Source: Minisyncoccota bacterium (GTDB lineage: Bacteria > Patescibacteriota > Minisyncoccia > Phycocordibacterales > UBA9973). From it: a stretch of DNA of 64,000 nucleotides. The notes under the pieces were generated by a model. It was not told the DNA's origin. It saw only the letters and a program-made list of their open reading frames with translations, and ran no database searches. Both the position numbers and the translations under genes were made by a program. Shown piece by piece: positions 2,253-60,578 of this stretch (positions within the stretch are counted from its first letter, which is position 1; the number at the start of each line of letters is the position of its first letter). The DNA lies in the NCBI GenBank assembly GCA_035403785.1, contig DAONFW010000003.1, positions 14,009 to 78,008 on the forward strand, read 5' to 3'.

Positions 2253-2288
2253 TATTATATCTATCGGACGAGAGAAGTCAAATATTTT

Positions 2289-2403
2289 CCCCTCCTTGAT
2301 CAAGGAGGGGCTAGGGGTGGTAATTCTAAAAAATCACCACCTTGCTCCGACAAAAGTCGGAGCACTCCTCCTCAACAAGGAGGAGAAAAAAGAAAATTTT
2401 ATT
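2289..2403 (-). repeat. Four-hairpin GC-rich structured element, copy A (SD/anti-SD-like arms); on the minus strand it lies 36 nt 5' of the gene start at 2252
   Basis: CCCCTCCTTGATCAAGGAGGGG, GGTGGTAATTCTAAAAAATCACCACC, GCTCCGACAAAAGTCGGAGC, CTCCTCCTCAACAAGGAGGAG then an A/T tail. A second copy is at 10046-10149. Confidence 0.6.
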
Positions 2404-2463: not shown

Positions 2464-4689
2464 ATGGCAAAAACCGAAAAAAAATTAGATAAAAAAAATA
2501 CTTCTCAAAAGAAAAACGTTAAACTTAAAACAGAAACTAAACACAAAATTCTCGCAGTTATATTTTTTGTTTTAGCAATTATTTTCTCTATGTCTGCTTT
2601 CTCGGGAGCTGGACCTGCGGGAGAATTTATTTATAAAATTTTTTATTTCTTATTTGGTTTTGGTTACGCTCTTTTGCCAATTTTATTTTTACTTTTGGGA
2701 TCATCTTTTATCAAATCAGAAAGACCAAATATCGGTTGGCCTCGCACGATAAGCGCACTGTTATTTTTGCTTTCAGGACTCGGAATGATCACAATTGCGG
2801 CAGGAGAATCTGGAAAAACTTATGGTGGATTTTTTGGAAAAGTTTTAGCAAATCCATTAGTCGCTTTATTCGATGTTTATGCAAGTATCTTTTTCCTTGG
2901 GGCTCTTTTGATTATCTCTCTTTTGGTAATGTTTGATACAAAACCTGAATTTGCATTCTTGAGTAAAATTTGGAATTGGTTAAAAGGAAAAAAAGTTGCG
3001 AGAGAAAATATTGCAGAAGAAGAGGTTGAAGAAACAGAAGAAGAAATTCCAGAAGAAACGATTGCTGAAGAAGTTATTGAAGAAGAAAAAGAAACAGCTG
3101 GAAGTAAACTCAAAAAAGCTTTGGGTGTTGGCAAGAAAGAAAAAAAAGACGAGCCAGAAGAAGAAATTCAAATAAAAAAGAGAAAATTTGTCTCAAATTC
3201 TGCTTATGTTCCACCACCACTTTCTTTGCTCGAAGAAGATAAAGGCAAACCAAATACGGGAGACGTGAAAGCTAACGCAAATATAATAAAACGCACACTT
3301 GCAAACTTCGGTATTGAAGTAGAAATGGATGAAATAACTGTAGGACCAACTGTTACACGTTACGCTTTGAAACCAGCTGAAGGGGTAAAACTTTCTAGAA
3401 TAGTTGGCTTGCAAAATGACCTGGCTCTAGCGCTAGCCGCTCACCCGATTAGAATAGAAGCTCCAATCCCTGGAAAATCTTTAGTCGGTATCGAAATACC
3501 TAACAAATCTAAATCTATTGTCGGTTTGGCTACATTGCTTTCTGAAGATAAATTCCAGCACTCACAGAAGCCGCTCACCGTGGCGCTCGGAAGAAGTATC
3601 TCTGGCCGAGGATCTTTTGGAAACTTAGCAAAAATGCCACACTGTCTAGTCGCTGGAACTACTGGATCTGGAAAATCTGTAACTATTCACGCTATTATTA
3701 CTTCCCTACTATATAGAAACGGTCCAGAAGATTTAAAATTTATCTTGATAGACCCAAAAAGAGTTGAATTAACGCTTTATAACAAAATTCCACACTTGCT
3801 TACTCCAGTTATTACTGATGCAAAGAAGGCTATTCTTGCTTTGAAATGGGCTGCTAAAGAAATGGATAGACGTTATGACATATTAGAAGCAGAATCTGTT
3901 CGTGATATCGAGTCTTATCACAATAATGTATTGGCTAAAAGTGAAAAGAAAGTGAAAGTAACCGAAAATGGCCAAGAAATCGAAGAACAAGCAGACAAAA
4001 TGCCTTATATTGTAATAATAATCGACGAATTGGCTGATATCATGACTGCTTACCCAAGAGAGCTGGAAGCAGCTATCGTAAGATTAGCCCAAATGTCCCG
4101 TGCCGTTGGAATTCATCTTATTCTTTCTACTCAAAGACCAGAAGTGAACGTTATTACTGGTTTGATTAAGGCAAACGTTCCAGCTCGTGTAGCATTGAAA
4201 GTGTCTTCACAGATAGATTCTAGAACTATTCTTGATGCCGGAGGGGCTGAAAAGCTTTTGGGAGCTGGAGATATGCTTTATTCTTCAGGTGAAGCTCAGC
4301 CAGAACGTTTGCAATCAGCCTTTATTTCAGAACCAGAAGTGAAAAAAGTAGTGAAATATTTAGTTGATAATTACAAAGACGAACTTATGGAAGAAATAAA
4401 CTTAACTTCTGGCTCTATCTCTGCTGATAAAAGTATTTTTGAAAGCACTTTAGACGATAGTGGCGATAATGACGACGAAATGTACGAAGAAGCTAGAGCT
4501 TGCATAATAGAAGCAGGCAAAGCCTCTACTTCTTATTTGCAAAGAAAATTAAAATTGGGCTACGCTCGCGCAGCTAGATTGATGGATATGTTGGAAGAAA
4601 GAGGCGTTATCGGCCCAGCAGATGGAGCAAAACCAAGAGAAGTACTAGAAAAAATTCAACACGACGAAAACGGAAATAATGTGATGTAA
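2464..4689 (+). CDS. ftsK: DNA translocase FtsK/SpoIIIE
   Basis: N-terminal TM helices; Walker A GTTGSGKSV; C-terminal gamma wHTH ...YLQRKLKLGYARAARLMDMLEERGVI. Confidence 0.92.
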   Translation: MAKTEKKLDKKNTSQKKNVKLKTETKHKILAVIFFVLAIIFSMSAFSGAGPAGEFIYKIFYFLFGFGYALLPILFLLLGSSFIKSERPNIGWPRTISALLFLLSGLGMITIAAGESGKTYGGFFGKVLANPLVALFDVYASIFFLGALLIISLLVMFDTKPEFAFLSKIWNWLKGKKVARENIAEEEVEETEEEIPEETIAEEVIEEEKETAGSKLKKALGVGKKEKKDEPEEEIQIKKRKFVSNSAYVPPPLSLLEEDKGKPNTGDVKANANIIKRTLANFGIEVEMDEITVGPTVTRYALKPAEGVKLSRIVGLQNDLALALAAHPIRIEAPIPGKSLVGIEIPNKSKSIVGLATLLSEDKFQHSQKPLTVALGRSISGRGSFGNLAKMPHCLVAGTTGSGKSVTIHAIITSLLYRNGPEDLKFILIDPKRVELTLYNKIPHLLTPVITDAKKAILALKWAAKEMDRRYDILEAESVRDIESYHNNVLAKSEKKVKVTENGQEIEEQADKMPYIVIIIDELADIMTAYPRELEAAIVRLAQMSRAVGIHLILSTQRPEVNVITGLIKANVPARVALKVSSQIDSRTILDAGGAEKLLGAGDMLYSSGEAQPERLQSAFISEPEVKKVVKYLVDNYKDELMEEINLTSGSISADKSIFESTLDDSGDNDDEMYEEARACIIEAGKASTSYLQRKLKLGYARAARLMDMLEERGVIGPADGAKPREVLEKIQHDENGNNVM

Positions 4690-6960: not shown

Positions 6961-6993
6961 AAAAAATCCGCAGATTTATCTGCGGATTTTTTA
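6961..6993. terminator. Bidirectional rho-independent terminator between efp (+) and rpsR (-)
   Basis: AAAAAATCCGCAGA-TTTA-TCTGCGGATTTTTT: perfect 9-bp stem flanked by A- and T-tracts. Confidence 0.75.
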
Positions 6994-6999
6994 GTTTCT

Positions 7000-7200
7000 T
7001 TATCTAGCTACGAAAGGTAACAAACCTAGAAAACGAGCTCTTTTGATTGCTAGAGCTAATTTTCTTTGATTTTTAGAATTAACTCCTGTTCTCTTGTGCT
7101 TCATTATCTTTCCGTTAGGGTTCAAAAACTTTTTCAAGATTTCTACATCCTTGTAGTCTATGTGTTTTATATTATTTGATGAAAAATAATCTTGCTTCAT
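7000..7200 (-). CDS. rpsR: 30S ribosomal protein S18
   Basis: ...[22 protein letters not shown] matches the S18 signature. Confidence 0.9.
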
Positions 7201-8386: not shown

Positions 8387-9235
8387 TTAAACCCCAAAAA
8401 GCCTTTTCGCGTTCTCCACAATAGCTTTAGCCACTATTTCTTCCTCAAGATTTTTAATTTCAGCGATTTTTTTCACTATTTCTTTCACATAAACCGGTTC
8501 GTTGCGTTCTCCCCTGTGCGGCACCGGCGCAAGATACGGGCTGTCAGTATCGGTTAGAATTTTATCAAGTGGCGTAGATTTTATGATTTCTTCATAATCT
8601 GGAAATCCAGCTTTCTTTTTGTAAGTAATATTCCCGGCAAAAGAAATATAAATTCCTAAATCTACAAATCTTTTCATATCTTCAAGATTTCCACCGAAAC
8701 AATGCGAAACGCCCTTAATATTTTTATAATTTTTCAAAATTTCAGCTATATCTGCATAAGCATTGTGACTTGTGTCGGTTGGATTGTTGCGAATGTGCAA
8801 CATTAATGGCTTATCAACTTCCAGAGCAAGCTCTATGTGATCTATAAAAACTTTTTTCTGTTTCTCGATAGATTCTTCGCTCATGTGATAATAATCCAAA
8901 CCGCATTCACCAATCGCAATTGTTTTTTTATCTTTTGCCAATTCTAAATATTTTTCTTTATCAAAAATTTCTCCGTGACTTTCAAAAGCAGGACCGGAAA
9001 TTTCTTCCTCATCGTGAAAACCTTCTTCAAGATGAATCGGGTGCAAACCAATACAAGCGTAAACACCAGTTTCATATTTGTTTGCAATTTCAACTGCTCT
9101 TTTCGAAGTACTGTACTGACTACCAACATTTGTTAAAAAAATATCATTATCAAGCGCACGCTGAATAACAACGTCTGCATAATCTTTGAATGATTTGAAA
9201 TTTATGTGCGCGTGTATGTCGAAGTATTTGGGCAT
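8387..9235 (-). CDS. tatD: TatD-family metal-dependent hydrolase (DNase)
   Basis: MPKYFDIHAHINF...; the HxH start and overall TIM-barrel hydrolase pattern of TatD/YcfH. Confidence 0.85.
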   Translation of the reverse strand: MPKYFDIHAHINFKSFKDYADVVIQRALDNDIFLTNVGSQYSTSKRAVEIANKYETGVYACIGLHPIHLEEGFHDEEEISGPAFESHGEIFDKEKYLELAKDKKTIAIGECGLDYYHMSEESIEKQKKVFIDHIELALEVDKPLMLHIRNNPTDTSHNAYADIAEILKNYKNIKGVSHCFGGNLEDMKRFVDLGIYISFAGNITYKKKAGFPDYEEIIKSTPLDKILTDTDSPYLAPVPHRGERNEPVYVKEIVKKIAEIKNLEEEIVAKAIVENAKRLFGV

Positions 9236-9239
9236 AAGA

Positions 9240-9665
9240 TTACTTATTTTTATTTACCATCTTTTCTAGCAACTTAATATCTTCCTGATCTTTTTCTCGA
9301 TTTAAAGCTTTCTTGAATTTTAAAAGTTCTTCTGGGCTCATAAAAGGTGTGCCTTTTATAACAACAGCAGAATTAATCGCTTGTTCAGAAGTTGTTTCAT
9401 ATTTTTCCCAATTTAATCTTGGAATAATAGTAAAAATATCTTTCTGTAAAAAGATCTGATCGTGAAGTTCTTCTTGTTTCCATGTTTGATCTTTTTTCAA
9501 CTCTTCATACAAATCTTTTGAAACAGCAATATCAATGTCACTAGCTGGTCTTATTCCTAAAGCATCGAGCAAACCACTACCAACAATCACATACTTACCA
9601 AAAGGTAAATTTAGCTCTTTGGTTTTTTCAAAAATATTAAATTTTTTATTTTCAAATTTTTCCAT
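9240..9665 (-). CDS. Putative nucleotidyltransferase-fold protein (minimal NTase)
   Basis: G-S-G x10 SDIDIAV fits the Pol-beta-type NTase motif hG[GS]...[DE]h[DE]h; 141 aa. Confidence 0.5.
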   Translation of the reverse strand: MEKFENKKFNIFEKTKELNLPFGKYVIVGSGLLDALGIRPASDIDIAVSKDLYEELKKDQTWKQEELHDQIFLQKDIFTIIPRLNWEKYETTSEQAINSAVVIKGTPFMSPEELLKFKKALNREKDQEDIKLLEKMVNKNK

Positions 9666-9669
9666 AAAT

Positions 9670-10032
9670 TTATTTAATTAAATTCAATTCATTAGTAATC
9701 TTTAACAATACTCCATTCATATTAGAATTTATTTCTGCGTTTGTAAAACGCAGAACTTTTATATCTAAACCCTCAAAATAATTACTTCTGATTTTATCAT
9801 ATTCTACATTTTCTTTTACAAAATGCTGTGATCCATCTATCTCTACCACTAACTTTTTCTCAGGACAATAAAAATCTGTAATGTACCCACCGATACTATG
9901 CTGGCGACGAAATTTACAACCAAGTTTAGATTGTTTTATTTTATTCCAAAGTAAAATTTCTTGAGGGGTACTATTGTTTCTCAATTCTTTTCTTCTGTAA
10001 AATAATTTTTTTATATTATGAACAGTTTTCAT
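9670..10032 (-). CDS. DUF559 / Vsr-like endonuclease-domain protein
   Basis: The first ATG of the tracked ORF is at 10032 (MKTVHNI...). The body ...RRQHSIGGYITDFYCPEKKLVVEIDGSQHF... is typical of the DUF559 (very-short-patch-repair-like) endonuclease fold. Confidence 0.7.
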   Translation of the reverse strand: MKTVHNIKKLFYRRKELRNNSTPQEILLWNKIKQSKLGCKFRRQHSIGGYITDFYCPEKKLVVEIDGSQHFVKENVEYDKIRSNYFEGLDIKVLRFTNAEINSNMNGVLLKITNELNLIK

Positions 10033-10045
10033 TTGTATTTTAGCT

Positions 10046-10149
10046 CCCCTCCTTGATAAGGAGGGGGTTGGGGGGTGGTAATTCATAAATCACCACCTCG
10101 CCCTTCGGGCACTCCTCCTCCACAAGGAGGAGAGAAATTAATTTTATTT
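10046..10149 (-). repeat. Four-hairpin GC-rich structured element, copy B; on the minus strand it lies 13 nt 5' of the DUF559 gene and just 3' of the metG stop
   Basis: CCCCTCCTTGATAAGGAGGGGG, GGTGGTAATTCATAAATCACCACC, CGCCCTTCGGGC, CTCCTCCTCCACAAGGAGGAG then an A/T tail. Same order and spacing as copy A. Confidence 0.6.
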
Positions 10150-11592
10150 CCTCAAAAACAAAGGCGTCTCTGGTTTTTTATTTGATTTAATTAATTCTTG
10201 AATTTTTTTGGAAGTTTCGGGAAGAAGCACTTCTGTCAGCAAAGCTATTTCGTAAAGTTTCAAAATATTTTCTTTTATTAATTCTTTTCCTTTTTCTTCA
10301 TCTATTTTTATAACTTTAAACGGCTCAGTTTCTTGAATTCTTTTATCTAATTCTCCAATCTTATTCCAAACGAATTCTGCCGCTTTTTGAATTTCAAATT
10401 TTTCTAAATGTTCAAAAAATTCTTGAGATATTTTTATATCTTCAAAATTAATTTTTTCTGTCAGATATTTCTCAGACAAAGTTAAAATTCTCGAAGTTAA
10501 ATTTCCCAAACCATTCGCTAATCCAGAGTTATAAGCTTCTTTGAATCTCTCTACTGTGAACGGGCTATCTTCAAAACTTCCAACTTCACGCAATAAGAAA
10601 TATCTCAAAGCATCTGTGCCATATTCTTTCACAATTTCTGTTGGATCAACTACATTGCCCAAAGTCTTGGACATTTTCACGCCACCTTCGGCTGTGATAA
10701 AGCCGTTTATGACTATCTGCTTTGAATTCGGCACACCGGCAGCCATGAGCATCGCTTGCCACATTGCAGATTGAAAACGTAAATTATCTTTTCCACAATA
10801 CTGAACTGTCATGCCATTTTTCCAATATTTTTCAAAATCTCCAGATTCATCTGGCCAGCCAAGCGTAGAAATATAATTCACTAACGCATCGAACCAAACA
10901 TACATGACATGCTTCTCATCTCCCGGCACTGGAATTCCCCACGGCATTTTTTCTTTCAGTCTTGATATAGAAAAATCTTGCAAGCCACGATCAACGAAAG
11001 CTTTGATTTCATTAAATCTAAAATCTGGAATTACAAAACTAGGATTATTTTTATAAAAATCAGAAAGTTTTTTTGTAAATTCAGAATATTTGAAAAAATA
11101 ATTTTCTTCATCTATTATTTCTAACTTTCTGCCTGGATGATCTACGCACTCTCCTTCTTCATTTAATTCATGATCTTGTTTTTCACATTCACAACCAACG
11201 CAATATTTCGTCTGGTAATTTTTTTTGTAAATAAAACCATTCTGATCGCATCTTTTCCAAAATTCCTGCGCTGCTTCAATGTGCTTCTGATCAGTAGTTC
11301 TAGAAAAGTGTAAAATACTTTCATCCATGCCAAAAATTTTTACGGCTTCTTTAAATTTCTCAAAACTTTGATCAACAAATTCCTGTGGCGTTAAGTTTAA
11401 ACTTTTTGCTTTCTCAAAAATTTTCATTCCGTGCTCATCTGTGCCAGTATTAAAATAAACATCAAAACCCAAAAGCTTTTTGTAACGCGCAATTACATCT
11501 GCACGAATAAATTCGAGCGCATGCCCCATGTGAAGTTCTGCATTCACATACGGCAGAGTTGTAGTAATGTAAAAATTTTTATTATTGTTCAT
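10144..11592 (-). CDS. metG: Methionyl-tRNA synthetase (minimal form, no C-terminal tRNA-binding domain)
   Basis: HIGH-region HMGHALEF; KMSKTLGNVVDP; Cys-rich knuckle CVGCECE... Confidence 0.92.
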   Translation of the reverse strand: MNNNKNFYITTTLPYVNAELHMGHALEFIRADVIARYKKLLGFDVYFNTGTDEHGMKIFEKAKSLNLTPQEFVDQSFEKFKEAVKIFGMDESILHFSRTTDQKHIEAAQEFWKRCDQNGFIYKKNYQTKYCVGCECEKQDHELNEEGECVDHPGRKLEIIDEENYFFKYSEFTKKLSDFYKNNPSFVIPDFRFNEIKAFVDRGLQDFSISRLKEKMPWGIPVPGDEKHVMYVWFDALVNYISTLGWPDESGDFEKYWKNGMTVQYCGKDNLRFQSAMWQAMLMAAGVPNSKQIVINGFITAEGGVKMSKTLGNVVDPTEIVKEYGTDALRYFLLREVGSFEDSPFTVERFKEAYNSGLANGLGNLTSRILTLSEKYLTEKINFEDIKISQEFFEHLEKFEIQKAAEFVWNKIGELDKRIQETEPFKVIKIDEEKGKELIKENILKLYEIALLTEVLLPETSKKIQELIKSNKKPETPLFLRK

Positions 11593-12658
11593 TTTTTTCT
11601 TTTAGTGAAATTTTATGTTTTTCGATATCGTTTAATATTTCCATAAATAACATGGCTCCAGGAATTGCTAAGATCAAACCCCAAAAACCACCTAATTTGA
11701 ATCCAACCAAGACGGACAAGATTATAATCAGCGGAGAAAGGTCGGTCACGCGCTTTATAATCAGCGGAGCAAAGAGATAAACATCAAACTGGTGAATTAT
11801 CATATATGCTCCTGTAACCATCAATGCACTCGAAATTCCGCCTGAAAGGTATGAAAATGCCACTGCTGGAATAAGCGCAACAATGATTCCATAAGGAATC
11901 AATTCCATAATTCCCGCAATGATAGAAAGCATAAGCGCGTATTGAATATTTAGCAAAGAAAGCACGAGAAAAGTTAACACAGCAACCAACACACCGAGCA
12001 ACATTTGACCTTTCATCCAAAGCGCAATTTTTCGGCTAACTCTGTTCCAAAGATCAACAACATATTCTTCTTGTTTTGCGGGTAAAATTATTCTCAAGAA
12101 GTTTTCTATGCCGTTTTCTTGAATAGAAAGATAAAAAGAAATAATTATAATTAAGAAAAAGTTGAAGATACTACCGAATGCTACTGACAAAGTTGTAAAA
12201 AATCCACCGGAAAGATTTGTGATAAAAGCTTTTGAAACATCCATCAAAGATGCCACCGAAGCTCCATTTGTTAGACTACCAACAATATCTTTCGCGCCAG
12301 AAAATGCTTCGCTTTGGAAATAATTTAAGAAATCGACACCCGGAGCATATTGAGCAAGGAAAGAAGCAAAATTATATATTTCTGTAATCATCAACGGAGC
12401 AAACAAATAAAATATTCCAGCCAAAACTGATATGCCAAAAACGTAAACAATCAGAACAGCCCAAATTCTACCAATTTTTATCTTTTTGAATCTACGAACA
12501 GCTCCCTCAACAAAAGATGCGATAACAATAGCAGTAAGCAGTACGAGCACTAAATCTCGCAAAAACCAAACCAAAAACAGTGCTAACGCAATCAAAAAGA
12601 CGCGAAAAATTGTCCCTGACGAAATTGAAATTCTAGATACGTTTTTGTTTCCTAACAT
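11582..12658 (-). CDS. AI-2E family transporter (PerM/UPF0118-like permease)
   Basis: 358 aa with multiple TM segments and the AI-2E-like arrangement; overlaps the metG start by 11 nt. Confidence 0.75.
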   Translation of the reverse strand: MLGNKNVSRISISSGTIFRVFLIALALFLVWFLRDLVLVLLTAIVIASFVEGAVRRFKKIKIGRIWAVLIVYVFGISVLAGIFYLFAPLMITEIYNFASFLAQYAPGVDFLNYFQSEAFSGAKDIVGSLTNGASVASLMDVSKAFITNLSGGFFTTLSVAFGSIFNFFLIIIISFYLSIQENGIENFLRIILPAKQEEYVVDLWNRVSRKIALWMKGQMLLGVLVAVLTFLVLSLLNIQYALMLSIIAGIMELIPYGIIVALIPAVAFSYLSGGISSALMVTGAYMIIHQFDVYLFAPLIIKRVTDLSPLIIILSVLVGFKLGGFWGLILAIPGAMLFMEILNDIEKHKISLKEKNEQ

Positions 12659-19011: not shown

Positions 19012-19047
19012 AAGAAAAACACCACGCTTTTGCGTGGTGTTTTTTAA
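19012..19047. terminator. Bidirectional rho-independent terminator
   Basis: ACACCACGC-TTTT-GCGTGGTGT flanked by A-tract and T-tract. It ends the ileS + 19055..19642 transcription unit. Confidence 0.7.
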
Positions 19048-31337: not shown

Positions 31338-31378
31338 AAAAAGCCCCTGACAATGAAATGTCAGGGGACGAGCTATTT
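31333..31378. terminator. Terminator hairpin between sodA (+) and the 31389..32051 gene (-)
   Basis: AAAAAAGCCCCTGACA-ATGAAA-TGTCAGGGG. Confidence 0.6.
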
Positions 31379-33609: not shown

Positions 33610-33640
33610 ATTTTTTTATAAAAATTTTTGTTTTTGATAC

Positions 33641-34153
33641 TTAGAAAAACTTTTTGTAATCTTTTAAACTACCAGCAAAAAGCAAAACTCTGTTACCTGC
33701 TGCGAAACCTGTTGCAATCTGATCGCATCTCTCGTTCAATTCAACACCGTCATGACCTTTCACTTTCGTCCATTTTATTTCATATTTGTGTTTTAGATCC
33801 AAAGTAAGCTTAACTAATTCTTCCCATAAATCTTTATTCAAAACAGGATCCTTACTAGCTGTGCGCCAGTTATTTTTCATCCAAGAAAAAACCCAACTCG
33901 TTATACCATTTAACAAATATCCAGAATCTGTATGAATATTTATTTTTCCACCAGAAATTTTTCTATCTTGCACTTCCCGCAAAGCCTGAATCGCAGCCGT
34001 CATTTCCATTCTGTTATTAGTAGAATTCTTTTCATTGCCACCAAGCTCTATTACTTTCTCATCTGGCGCAATAATTACACTTCCCCAACCACCAGGACCG
34101 GGATTTCCTAACGAGCTACCGTCTGTGTAAATTATAATTTCATCTTTTTTCAT
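33641..34153 (-). CDS. rnhA: Ribonuclease HI
   Basis: IIYTDGSSLGNPGPGGWG; DEDD catalytic pattern. Confidence 0.9.
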   Translation of the reverse strand: MKKDEIIIYTDGSSLGNPGPGGWGSVIIAPDEKVIELGGNEKNSTNNRMEMTAAIQALREVQDRKISGGKINIHTDSGYLLNGITSWVFSWMKNNWRTASKDPVLNKDLWEELVKLTLDLKHKYEIKWTKVKGHDGVELNERCDQIATGFAAGNRVLLFAGSLKDYKKFF

Positions 34154-34187
34154 AAATTAAATTATACAAGATATTTTATCACACAAA

Positions 34188-59479: not shown

Positions 59480-59546
59480 GGCTAAATTATAGCTTATTTA
59501 AATTAAGTAAAGCAAAAAAGTTATCCCCAGAATCTCTATTTGTTTT

Positions 59547-60500
59547 TTACTTCTTAACCTGGCTAGCAGCAAGACGGAGCATTACTTCTTTTGTCGTATT
59601 TTCTGAATTAGTTATTAAGACAGAAGTATTGTTTGCATAAACATACATTAAGACTATTTTCCCGTCATTATCTCGCAAAATTCTAGCATTTTTGTTTTGA
59701 ACTATTCCGTCTTCAAAGTCTTTTGTCAGTAAATAATTAGTATCCGCATTTATCGGCACACCAAAAAATCCATGCAAATCAAAAAACATTTTGTATTCCC
59801 AAGCTTTCATCGCTTGAAAAATGTCACTCATTGAGCGATTTTGTAACAAAATAAACAAATTCTTTTCACTGCCGTCTGGTGAAACATTATTTAATACATT
59901 AGAAACCCCAATCAAATAATTATCACTTAAAAAAGTAGCTTTTTCTAGTGGCAAATTTCCACTGATTAAATTTATCAATTCTCTAAAACCAATAATTTTA
60001 TTATCTTGAGTTAAGTAAATTCCTTCTATTCCGCCAACTTTTACATCTGTAGCTTTAGTTCTAACGTAGACAGACTGAGCTATTTTGTCTTTGGTTAAAC
60101 CAGCAACATTAATATAACTTGTCTTGTCTAAAAAAATCATTGGTGTAAATTTTGGTTGGACTGGAGCCGTCAAAGTGTTCTTTCTATAAGCATTAATCCA
60201 AAAGAAGACACCAATAGCCGAGAAAAATAACAAAATACTTACAATAACAAAAACTTTATTTTTGTTGCTCGTCAAAGATTTATTTTTTTCTTCAGCTTCT
60301 TTCTGCTCTTGTTCTTCTATCAATCTATGAATTACACCACCTTGTCCAGTTTCCAAAACCTTTGCCATATCATCGGCAAAAGTCTGCGCTTTCACTTTTG
60401 GGACAAAATTTGCCGAATTTACTGTTTGTGTGTTTTCTTTATTTTCTTGATTTATTGGATTTTCTATTTTTACTTCTGAGTTTGAATTATTTTCAGACAT
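59547..60500 (-). CDS. Hypothetical single-pass membrane protein
   Basis: Start at ATG 60500, directly after a TATAAT (leaderless pattern); TM VFVIVSILLFFSAIGVFFWI. Confidence 0.5.
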   Translation of the reverse strand: MSENNSNSEVKIENPINQENKENTQTVNSANFVPKVKAQTFADDMAKVLETGQGGVIHRLIEEQEQKEAEEKNKSLTSNKNKVFVIVSILLFFSAIGVFFWINAYRKNTLTAPVQPKFTPMIFLDKTSYINVAGLTKDKIAQSVYVRTKATDVKVGGIEGIYLTQDNKIIGFRELINLISGNLPLEKATFLSDNYLIGVSNVLNNVSPDGSEKNLFILLQNRSMSDIFQAMKAWEYKMFFDLHGFFGVPINADTNYLLTKDFEDGIVQNKNARILRDNDGKIVLMYVYANNTSVLITNSENTTKEVMLRLAASQVKK

Positions 60501-60578
60501 GTTTATATTATAGCAGAAAATTAAATTGCCACCTCGCTCGAAAGACAAGATGGCAATTTAATTTTTATTTTAATTTTA

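Follow-up and report, generated by a model that had tools for sequence, protein, structure and literature searches.

Results

Two copies of a four-hairpin element in the window

The window analyzed here is a stretch of 64,000 nucleotides from a Minisyncoccota bacterium (contig DAONFW010000003.1 of assembly GCA_035403785.1). On its minus strand, the spacer between metG (10144..11592) and tatD (8387..9235) carries a gene for a 120-aa, Vsr-like PD-(D/E)XK endonuclease of the DUF559 family (9670..10032), and a GC-rich element of ~95 nt composed of four hairpins (H1 to H4) lies between this gene and metG. This element, designated copy B (10044..10135), is read from H1 to H4 on the plus strand, antisense to both metG and DUF559, and forms the upstream flank of DUF559. 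A second element, copy A (2287..2387, plus strand), stands alone in the divergent spacer between a winged-helix gene (minus strand) and ftsK (plus strand). Both belong to a repeat family of Nomurabacteria and Paceibacterota (Candidate Phyla Radiation, CPR) that was inserted in coding sequence, was polymorphic among genomes and was physically linked to DUF559 genes. The data somewhat favor a family of pseudo-palindromic mobile repeats that form cassettes with the DUF559 nuclease. In the best reading, copy B and DUF559 together (9670-10135) are a mobile cassette in the metG-tatD spacer, and copy A is a solo remnant.

The hairpins of copy B occupy 10046-10066 (H1), ~10072-10099 (H2), 10100-10110 (H3) and 10112-10132 (H4); in copy A, H1 occupies 2289-2310, H3 2343-2364 and H4 2365-2385. 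The H1 and H4 patterns were each found at two sites in the 64-kb window, those of copies A and B alone, compared with an expectation of 0 in 100 shuffles, and the two copies reported by an earlier, sequence-only reading were thereby borne out. Both copies folded more stably than shuffled sequences on both strands (z = -5.6 to -9.5; 0/200 shuffles equal), with z = -5.6 and -6.2 for the two strands of copy B and a hairpin stability of ~-52 to -65 kcal/mol. The earlier statement that every stem pairs GGAGG with CCTCC did not hold. This pairing was present in H1 and H4 only; H3 is an unrelated variable hairpin, and H2 pairs GGTGGT with ACCACC and contains a conserved A.C mismatch (10074-10097 and 2317-2342). 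The A.C mismatch of the sense strand is a G.T mismatch on the antisense strand, and a G.T mismatch in a hairpin is of note beside a Vsr-like nuclease; the search pattern used below partly enforced this mismatch.

The element was found to consist of two inverted half-sites joined at the H2 arms, each half-site comprising a CCTCC...GGAGG hairpin, a spacer (or the variable hairpin H3) and one H2 arm. The outer ends are terminal inverted repeats, CTCCCCTCCTT and AAGGAGGAGAG, and the whole element forms one pseudo-palindrome in which the H1 and H4 arms of the minus strand are able to pair together. The H2 core was inverted relative to the rest of the element in some copies (L038, L045, L055 and L031:5089-5182; loci from other genomes are given by L numbers). 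No Rfam family matched either copy at gathering thresholds (best sub-threshold scores of 24-26 bits vs thresholds of 70-80, with permissive filters), in agreement with the earlier failure to recognize a named RNA family. No tRNA or tmRNA was found, and a scan for terminators, covering both strands of both copies, revealed neither a U-tract nor a terminator-like site.

The repeat family in related genomes

An exact-pattern scan for H2 in the GTDB genome set gave 51 loci. Full four-hairpin elements were present at 41 of them, all in metagenome-assembled genomes (MAGs) of Nomurabacteria, Paceibacterota or Patescibacteria, while the other 10, in unrelated bacteria, matched by chance. With a covariance model of 43 copies, additional copies without the exact H2 pattern were recovered; in the window the model matched 10039-10134 (copy B, 102.2 bits, E 1.4e-17) and 2282-2387 (copy A, 83.9 bits). 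Pattern scan, covariance model and protein-guided look-ups together yielded 53 strong copies in ~40 Nomurabacteria/Paceibacterota genomes and metagenome contigs. The window had two copies, and up to four were present among the loci of a single genome. Permuted forms without a gene (H2b-H3-H4, 0-17 nt, H1-H2a) were also found, two of them in-frame in the FtsK ATPase domain.

The covariance-model search had been proposed by the sequence-only reading, and the copies it recovered demonstrated covariation. Paired columns kept their pairing in 98.3% of cells, and double changes occurred at 9 pairs in 30 cells, compared with 4.9 +/- 1.8 in shuffles. The compensatory changes first noticed between copies A and B are real, but the claim that they imply selection on structure held only in part: palindromic symmetry is maintained, and a structured RNA, a hairpin or cruciform in DNA, a symmetric site for a binding protein or self-templated correction of the palindrome would account for it equally well.

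No match was found in PLSDB plasmids. In viral contigs, no H2-pattern match and no DUF559 relative was found, and four matches to the H4 pattern alone were unrelated; the element is not evidently carried by phages or plasmids. The searchable literature, incompletely covered, contained no description of the element and no link between DUF559 and a repeat. Other GC-rich nested hairpin families were seen in related genomes (L012:5980-6066 and 7073-7159; L019:3580-3620 and 4010-4090; L150:1420-1500 and 1850-1950). Two independent metagenome contigs of one strain, L004 (end 4728) and L007 (end 1822), terminate within the element, ~50 nt past the stop codon of metG; assemblies break at repeats in this way.

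Copies within genes

Long open reading frames (ORFs) contained 38 of the 48 copies in the census, and all 38 were oriented in sense, reading H1 to H4 along the host gene. Given the stop-free frames available per strand, the probability that 36 copies in a row would all be sense was ~1e-6. The host frame was kept on both sides of the insert in 37/38 coding copies. The exception was an ftsK copy with a 1-nt deletion in the H4 loop (L035:2185-2280, MAG LCGB01), where the frame shifts and a stop follows 53 codons on; the deletion could reflect an error of assembly, a pseudogene or a genuine frameshift. Different copies were read in different internal frames (NSKNHHLALKG..., NSKKSPPRPSG... and NSFITTSPFGHSSSIRRRG), and compensating indels in the H2 loop, H3 or the H1 loop returned them to the frame of the host gene. 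Because the reading frame is conserved, we infer that the inserts are translated. We also considered whether the coding copies are spliced out or bypassed in translation, and judge this unlikely, given the frame and stop-free reading kept in 37/38 and the compensating indels.

Pfam domains ran on across the insert in MetRS, MnmA (two sites), TsaD, RNase R, LigA, UvrA, UvrC, UvrB (three sites), FtsK (two sites) and a PaaX-like regulator. An AlphaFold model of MetRS with the insert had a mean predicted local distance difference test (pLDDT) score of 84.3 and a predicted template modeling score of 0.85, whereas the insert itself (residues 252-280) had a pLDDT <50 and no secondary structure, which predicts a disordered loop. 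The same MetRS site contained an intact insert in P0143 and P0192 and a decayed one in P0224, P0141 and L008. Neither the window nor any of the 10 relatives compared at that site had the metG coding insertion, and the covariance model had no match inside metG in any of 80 metG loci. A search of a large protein database with the 32-aa element peptide was too short to match; a 64-aa concatenate of the peptide recovered one UvrB fragment alone, with the word index and low complexity probably limiting.

In a raw count, seven of 14 distinct canonical coding sites were in repair or segregation genes, namely uvrA, uvrB (3 sites), uvrC, ligA and ftsK (L009, L018, L029, L031, L043, L046, L049 and the ftsK loci). 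A similar bias is known for inteins, homing introns and uptake sequences. The FtsK linker in the window (3002-3181) contains a degenerate 15-nt periodic acidic repeat of the GAAGAAG type, reading EEEVEETEEEIPEE, and the same linker carries the four-hairpin element in several relatives.

Physical linkage to DUF559 genes

A search with the DUF559 protein of the window gave >1000 close homologues. Among the 120 closest (cluster representatives), the gene calls of 36 ran into an N- or C-terminal peptide encoded by the element. Contigs were also taken for homologues without an element-derived extension (P0003, P0010, P0008 and P0092; a fifth, P0048, was without retrievable DNA). All four of the resulting loci (L143, L144, L157 and L160), which were chosen without regard to the element, carried a full element directly upstream, ending at the DUF559 ATG or at most ~10 nt from it. 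The adjacency noticed in the window is thus recurrent. The upstream element was antisense to DUF559 in L143, L144 and L157, as in the window; the two strands of L160 scored 67.8 and 57.8 bits, and its orientation is ambiguous.

Several other geometries were observed. In L075 the order was metG, element, DUF559, element and tatD, with two identical ~115-nt copies bracketing the gene, and in L008 it was metG, element and tatD, the arrangement expected after recombination between flanking repeats. In L145 and L152, DUF559 was enclosed by 12-bp perfect inverted ends, TTAATCACCACC and GGTGGTGATTAA. These ends correspond to the two H2 arms; H1 follows inside one of them and H4-H3 inside the other, which places the gene between H1 and H4. 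Insertion of DUF559 in the H2 loop was therefore rejected as a description of these loci, where the H2 arms are the outer ends. In L148 and L149, ~40-bp inverted repeats surrounded the gene, each composed of an H2 arm, a spacer and H1, while L147 had a full element upstream and a permuted one downstream of DUF559. Cassettes were found in five spacers: metG-tatD, proS-M16 peptidase, rmuC-RNase T, LDcluster4-rplT and gyrA-methyltransferase.

Read antisense, the order H4', H3', H2', H1', DUF559 was kept in the window, L075, L143, L144, L145, L147, L152 and L157, and was merely opened at differing points; the exception was L148/L149, where the downstream end is a sense H1-H2a. Because this order is kept, an end-joined, tandem or circular stage is proposed. 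Two other, more distant DUF559 subfamilies were flanked by other GC-rich hairpin families (L150 and L019; PPLDKGRVREGS-type extensions), which argues for a specific partnership instead of chance adjacency.

The DUF559 nuclease

The DUF559 protein of the window matched PF04480 with 105.1 bits (cut-off 20.6, E 2.3e-30) and PDB entry 3hrl by sequence (E 3.9e-17). Its structural model had a pLDDT of 84, and 3hrl was also the first Foldseek match (E 7e-6), followed by the catalytic domain of the homing endonuclease I-Bth0305I (3r3p, E 2.6e-4, probability 1.0) and then Vsr. The modeled fold suggests that I-Bth0305I is the closest characterized structural relative, and Vsr, DUF559 and I-Bth0305I have been classed in one clade (PMC3424549, PMC3239194). 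Residues D53, E64, D66 and H70 were invariant in 67 homologues.

DUF559 was 81-84% identical in three of four genome pairs, compared with 63-71% for MetG and 46-68% for TatD. The values of the fourth pair, with L150 of another DUF559 subfamily, were 70% for DUF559, 67% for MetG and 63% for TatD. The higher conservation of DUF559 fits either strong constraint or more recent horizontal spread.

Filled and empty insertion sites

Of 80 metagenomic metG relatives, one (L075) carried the element after metG, and the other 79 had no match to this DUF559 or to the element. The spacer between metG, its left border, and tatD, its right border, was filled in the window, L075, L143, L157 and L150. Further cargo in this spacer included a P-loop kinase (L063), a 141-aa ORF (window and L157), a 101-aa ORF (L143) and a HAD hydrolase (the P0048 contig), and the spacer is a hotspot for variable cargo. 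The 141-aa ORF (9240..9665, minus strand), which follows DUF559 in L157 as well, matched no family and is a lineage-specific passenger. The proS-M16 spacer was occupied in L145 and L152; in the window, L075, L097 and most relatives it was empty, with ATG following TAA directly.

Neighboring genes and translation signals

The metG stop codon (10144-10146) lies 10 nt from copy B, confirming that the copy is directly 3' of metG. On its other side, a 13-nt spacer of the GCTAAAATACAA type (10033..10045, minus strand) separates the last hairpin, H1, from the DUF559 ATG (10032-10030). A AAAATACA-type motif directly before the ATG recurred in L075 (before both DUF559 and tatD), L008 and L150, and other cassettes had the variants AAAAATGCA (L143) and TAAAATCT (L145). 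In some public gene calls DUF559 is 138 aa long (9670-10086), with an ATG that lies within the element taken as the start (MNYHPPTPSLSRRGAKIQ...). The added residues are an antisense reading of the element, and the conserved start is the 120-aa start at 10032.

A promoter-like site of the winged-helix gene (2254..2281, minus strand; TTGACT-16-TATAAT, 11/12) lies between copy A and the ATG at 2252, and the promoter scan placed copy A upstream of the promoter-like sites of both its neighbors. Because the gene's own promoter-like site intervenes, copy A is not a leader of the winged-helix gene. The 13-nt distance between copy B and DUF559 given by the earlier reading was confirmed.

A Shine-Dalgarno core 4-mer at -20 to -4 was present before one of 54 window ORFs (6% background), and the earlier remark that genes in the window otherwise lack Shine-Dalgarno sequences was correct. 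In many window genes the ATG was preceded, at 5-8 nt, by a TATAAT or an extended -10 box (e.g., 11593-11617, 33640-34180 and 59546-60525), which suggests widespread leaderless mRNAs in this organism. Three more short perfect GC-rich hairpins were seen in the window (6967-6986, between the convergent genes efp and rpsR; 19020-19039; 31344-31367). They are probably terminators, unrelated to the element family.

Discussion

Among the functions offered by the sequence-only reading, a miniature mobile or REP-like (repetitive extragenic palindrome) element was the best fit, since the element is multi-copy, polymorphic at orthologous sites and inside many unrelated genes. We lean toward a repeat family that moves and forms cassettes with DUF559; whether the DUF559 nuclease itself mobilizes the repeat we judge evenly balanced. 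In the mechanism that we prefer, DUF559 would nick or cut palindromic half-sites or empty target sites, and repair or recombination would then copy the cassette in. Recombination between flanking elements would remove DUF559 and leave solo elements, and solo and gene-less derivatives would spread in the manner of MITEs (miniature transposable elements with inverted repeats). Within genes, the survivors would be sense, frame-keeping copies alone, translated as a ~30-residue disordered loop rich in Gly and Pro. A further step, to which we give distinctly less credence, is that small DUF559 proteins may be the mobilizing nucleases of an unrecognized class of mobile element. Such an element would be a 120-aa Vsr-like gene bounded by GC-rich hairpin half-sites, moving between conserved spacers, possibly via a circular or end-joined form, and shedding gene-less palindromes into essential CPR genes as translated inserts.

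Each component has known counterparts, which are coding palindromic repeats, MITEs and free-standing homing nuclease genes. New here are the lineage of the hosts, the pseudo-palindromic design with four hairpins and, most of all, the recurrent linkage to DUF559. According to a review (PMC10969869), Rickettsia palindromic elements (RPEs) are likewise ~100-150-nt palindromic hairpin repeats with several copies per small AT-rich genome, both intergenic and in-frame in unrelated housekeeping genes, where the host protein gains a short peptide, as seen here in relatives. The present element differs in that it is strongly GC-rich, has four hairpins, is linked physically to a nuclease gene and resides in the CPR. 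Its hosts are Nomurabacteria/Paceibacterota MAGs and not Rickettsia, a relation in sequence is not expected, and we do not claim membership in a named RPE family. The element shares with MITEs a small size, multiple copies and terminal inverted repeats, its gene-carrying units have the same ends (L145, L148 and L152), and its gene-less forms resemble internal deletions (L046, L035 and L023). The partner gene, however, is a 120-aa Vsr-like DUF559 nuclease and not a known transposase, and the commonest solo form is a junction type, with the ends joined back to back instead of in left-end/right-end order.

DUF559 resembles free-standing homing endonuclease genes in that its model matches the I-Bth0305I catalytic domain, diverged genomes either have or lack it at the same conserved spacers, and it is more conserved than its neighbors in three of four genome pairs. 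It differs from them in lacking an intron or intein and in being bounded by palindromic repeats, whereas I-Bth0305I resides within a group I intron and possesses additional DNA-binding regions (PMC3239194). Another parallel is a nuclease gene flanked by copies of genome-scattered short palindromic repeats, as in the REPtrons formed by REPs or bacterial interspersed mosaic elements with REP-associated tyrosine transposases (RAYTs); a further shared trait is that hairpin structure counts for more than sequence. RAYTs, however, belong to the Y1 (HUH) enzymes, and REPs are extragenic and 20-40 nt long. The present element is ~95 nt, mostly intragenic in our sample, and flanks DUF559; no RAYT or other Y1 (HUH) enzyme was seen at the loci, whose search for RAYT genes was not exhaustive. 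The GC clusters of yeast mitochondria are also GC-rich, palindromic and mobile, some of them inside coding sequence (var1) and some with free-standing endonuclease ORFs. They too reside in a very AT-rich genome, but they are organellar and eukaryotic, shorter, and associated with different nucleases.

Several points weigh against a DUF559-driven mobile family. Enzyme-driven mobility is argued from sequence and linkage, and DUF559 could be a passenger that lands in or beside hairpin clusters. We know of no DUF559 protein that acts as a transposase, and DUF559 proteins elsewhere are thought to be mismatch-repair nucleases (PMC12907096). The exact H2 pattern biased the sample toward well-kept, junction-type copies. 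Both window copies are intergenic, so that translation of an insert is not seen in the window itself. Target sites gave equivocal signals: L145 had a possible ATAAA target-site duplication relative to empty proS-M16 junctions, where the nearest empty alleles are only ~73% identical; the metG coding insertion, also compared with nearest empty alleles of ~73% identity, gave nothing decisive; and the flanks of solo copies were ambiguous (GAATTTC / GAAATTTC in L030). Copies at orthologous sites were 80% identical, compared with 76% for copies within a genome and 72% for unrelated pairs. Concerted evolution within genomes was looked for and not found, and most sampled insertions are therefore old and vertically inherited, not recently transposed.

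The most serious alternative is a selfish RPE- or MITE-like repeat moved by some host or transposon function, with DUF559 as a passenger or as an independent selfish gene kept near GC-rich hairpin clusters. In favor of a passenger, ~40 of the 53 copies had no DUF559 within the 8-kb loci, the insertions look old and vertically inherited, and no known transposase fold was found. To our knowledge RPEs likewise have no mobilizing enzyme. The available text of the review names none (PMC10969869). The geometry is nevertheless too regular for chance, with a full element directly before the ATG in 4/4 unbiased cases and at five loci, element parts as inverted or direct terminal repeats around the gene, and other DUF559 subfamilies paired with other hairpin families. 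We consider a passenger DUF559 a real but lesser possibility than the cassette reading.

The cassette reading must also be weighed against a mainly cis-regulatory role, in which minus-strand copy B would be the leader of DUF559. The 3' arm of the last hairpin contains an AAGGAGG, 11-15 nt before the ATG, that would act as a masked ribosome-binding site and keep the nuclease low. Translational masking is common for transposase and homing endonuclease genes, the position is kept (at most ~10 nt from the DUF559 ATG in the window, L075, L143, L144, L147 and L157), and the rest of the window is almost without Shine-Dalgarno sequences. The same scarcity cuts the other way, for in an apparently leaderless organism a Shine-Dalgarno sequence may go unread. 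Moreover, 38 copies of the element lie within ORFs and in the opposite orientation, solo copies have no gene that they could regulate, and copy A lies upstream of both neighboring promoters, which argues against a riboregulator as the general function. A leader as the main role is unlikely; at most it would be secondary and local, and masking of DUF559 translation is possible in that sense.

A DNA uptake or recombination signal, or a host-protein binding site that aids genome maintenance, comparable to the uptake sequences of Neisseria and Haemophilus, would account for the seven of 14 coding sites in repair and segregation genes, and palindromic symmetry would suit a dimeric binding protein. 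Orthologous copies were 82-87% identical (H2 arms excluded) compared with 63-77% for the flanking coding sequence, which would also be in keeping with such a signal; this estimate is inflated by the exact-pattern sampling of copies. Uptake sequences have a length of 9-12 nt and a density of about one per kb, whereas the present element is ~95 nt with two copies in 64 kb. Decayed copies exist, and a bias toward repair genes is equally typical of inteins and homing elements. An uptake or maintenance signal is accordingly very unlikely. Least credible of all is a multi-hairpin terminator or insulator or a free-standing small structured RNA, which the very stable hairpins and the position of copy B after the metG stop might suggest, but which, as a general function, is contradicted by the 38/48 copies inside ORFs that need read-through, the missing U-tract and the absence of an Rfam match.

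The element bears on how CPR sequences are interpreted. The 138-aa and 150-aa models of DUF559 arise where gene callers carry the ORF on into the repeat, assemblies end at the element (L004 and L007), and alignments of CPR housekeeping proteins carry ~30-residue inserts that come from the repeat and not from the protein family. Coding palindromic repeats have so far been a Rickettsia oddity without a known engine, and a comparable family is now present in ultra-small CPR bacteria, where DUF559 function and repeat movement become directly testable questions. If DUF559 does mobilize the repeat, a widespread domain of unknown function would gain a role, and coding palindromic repeats of the RPE type would have a candidate enzyme.

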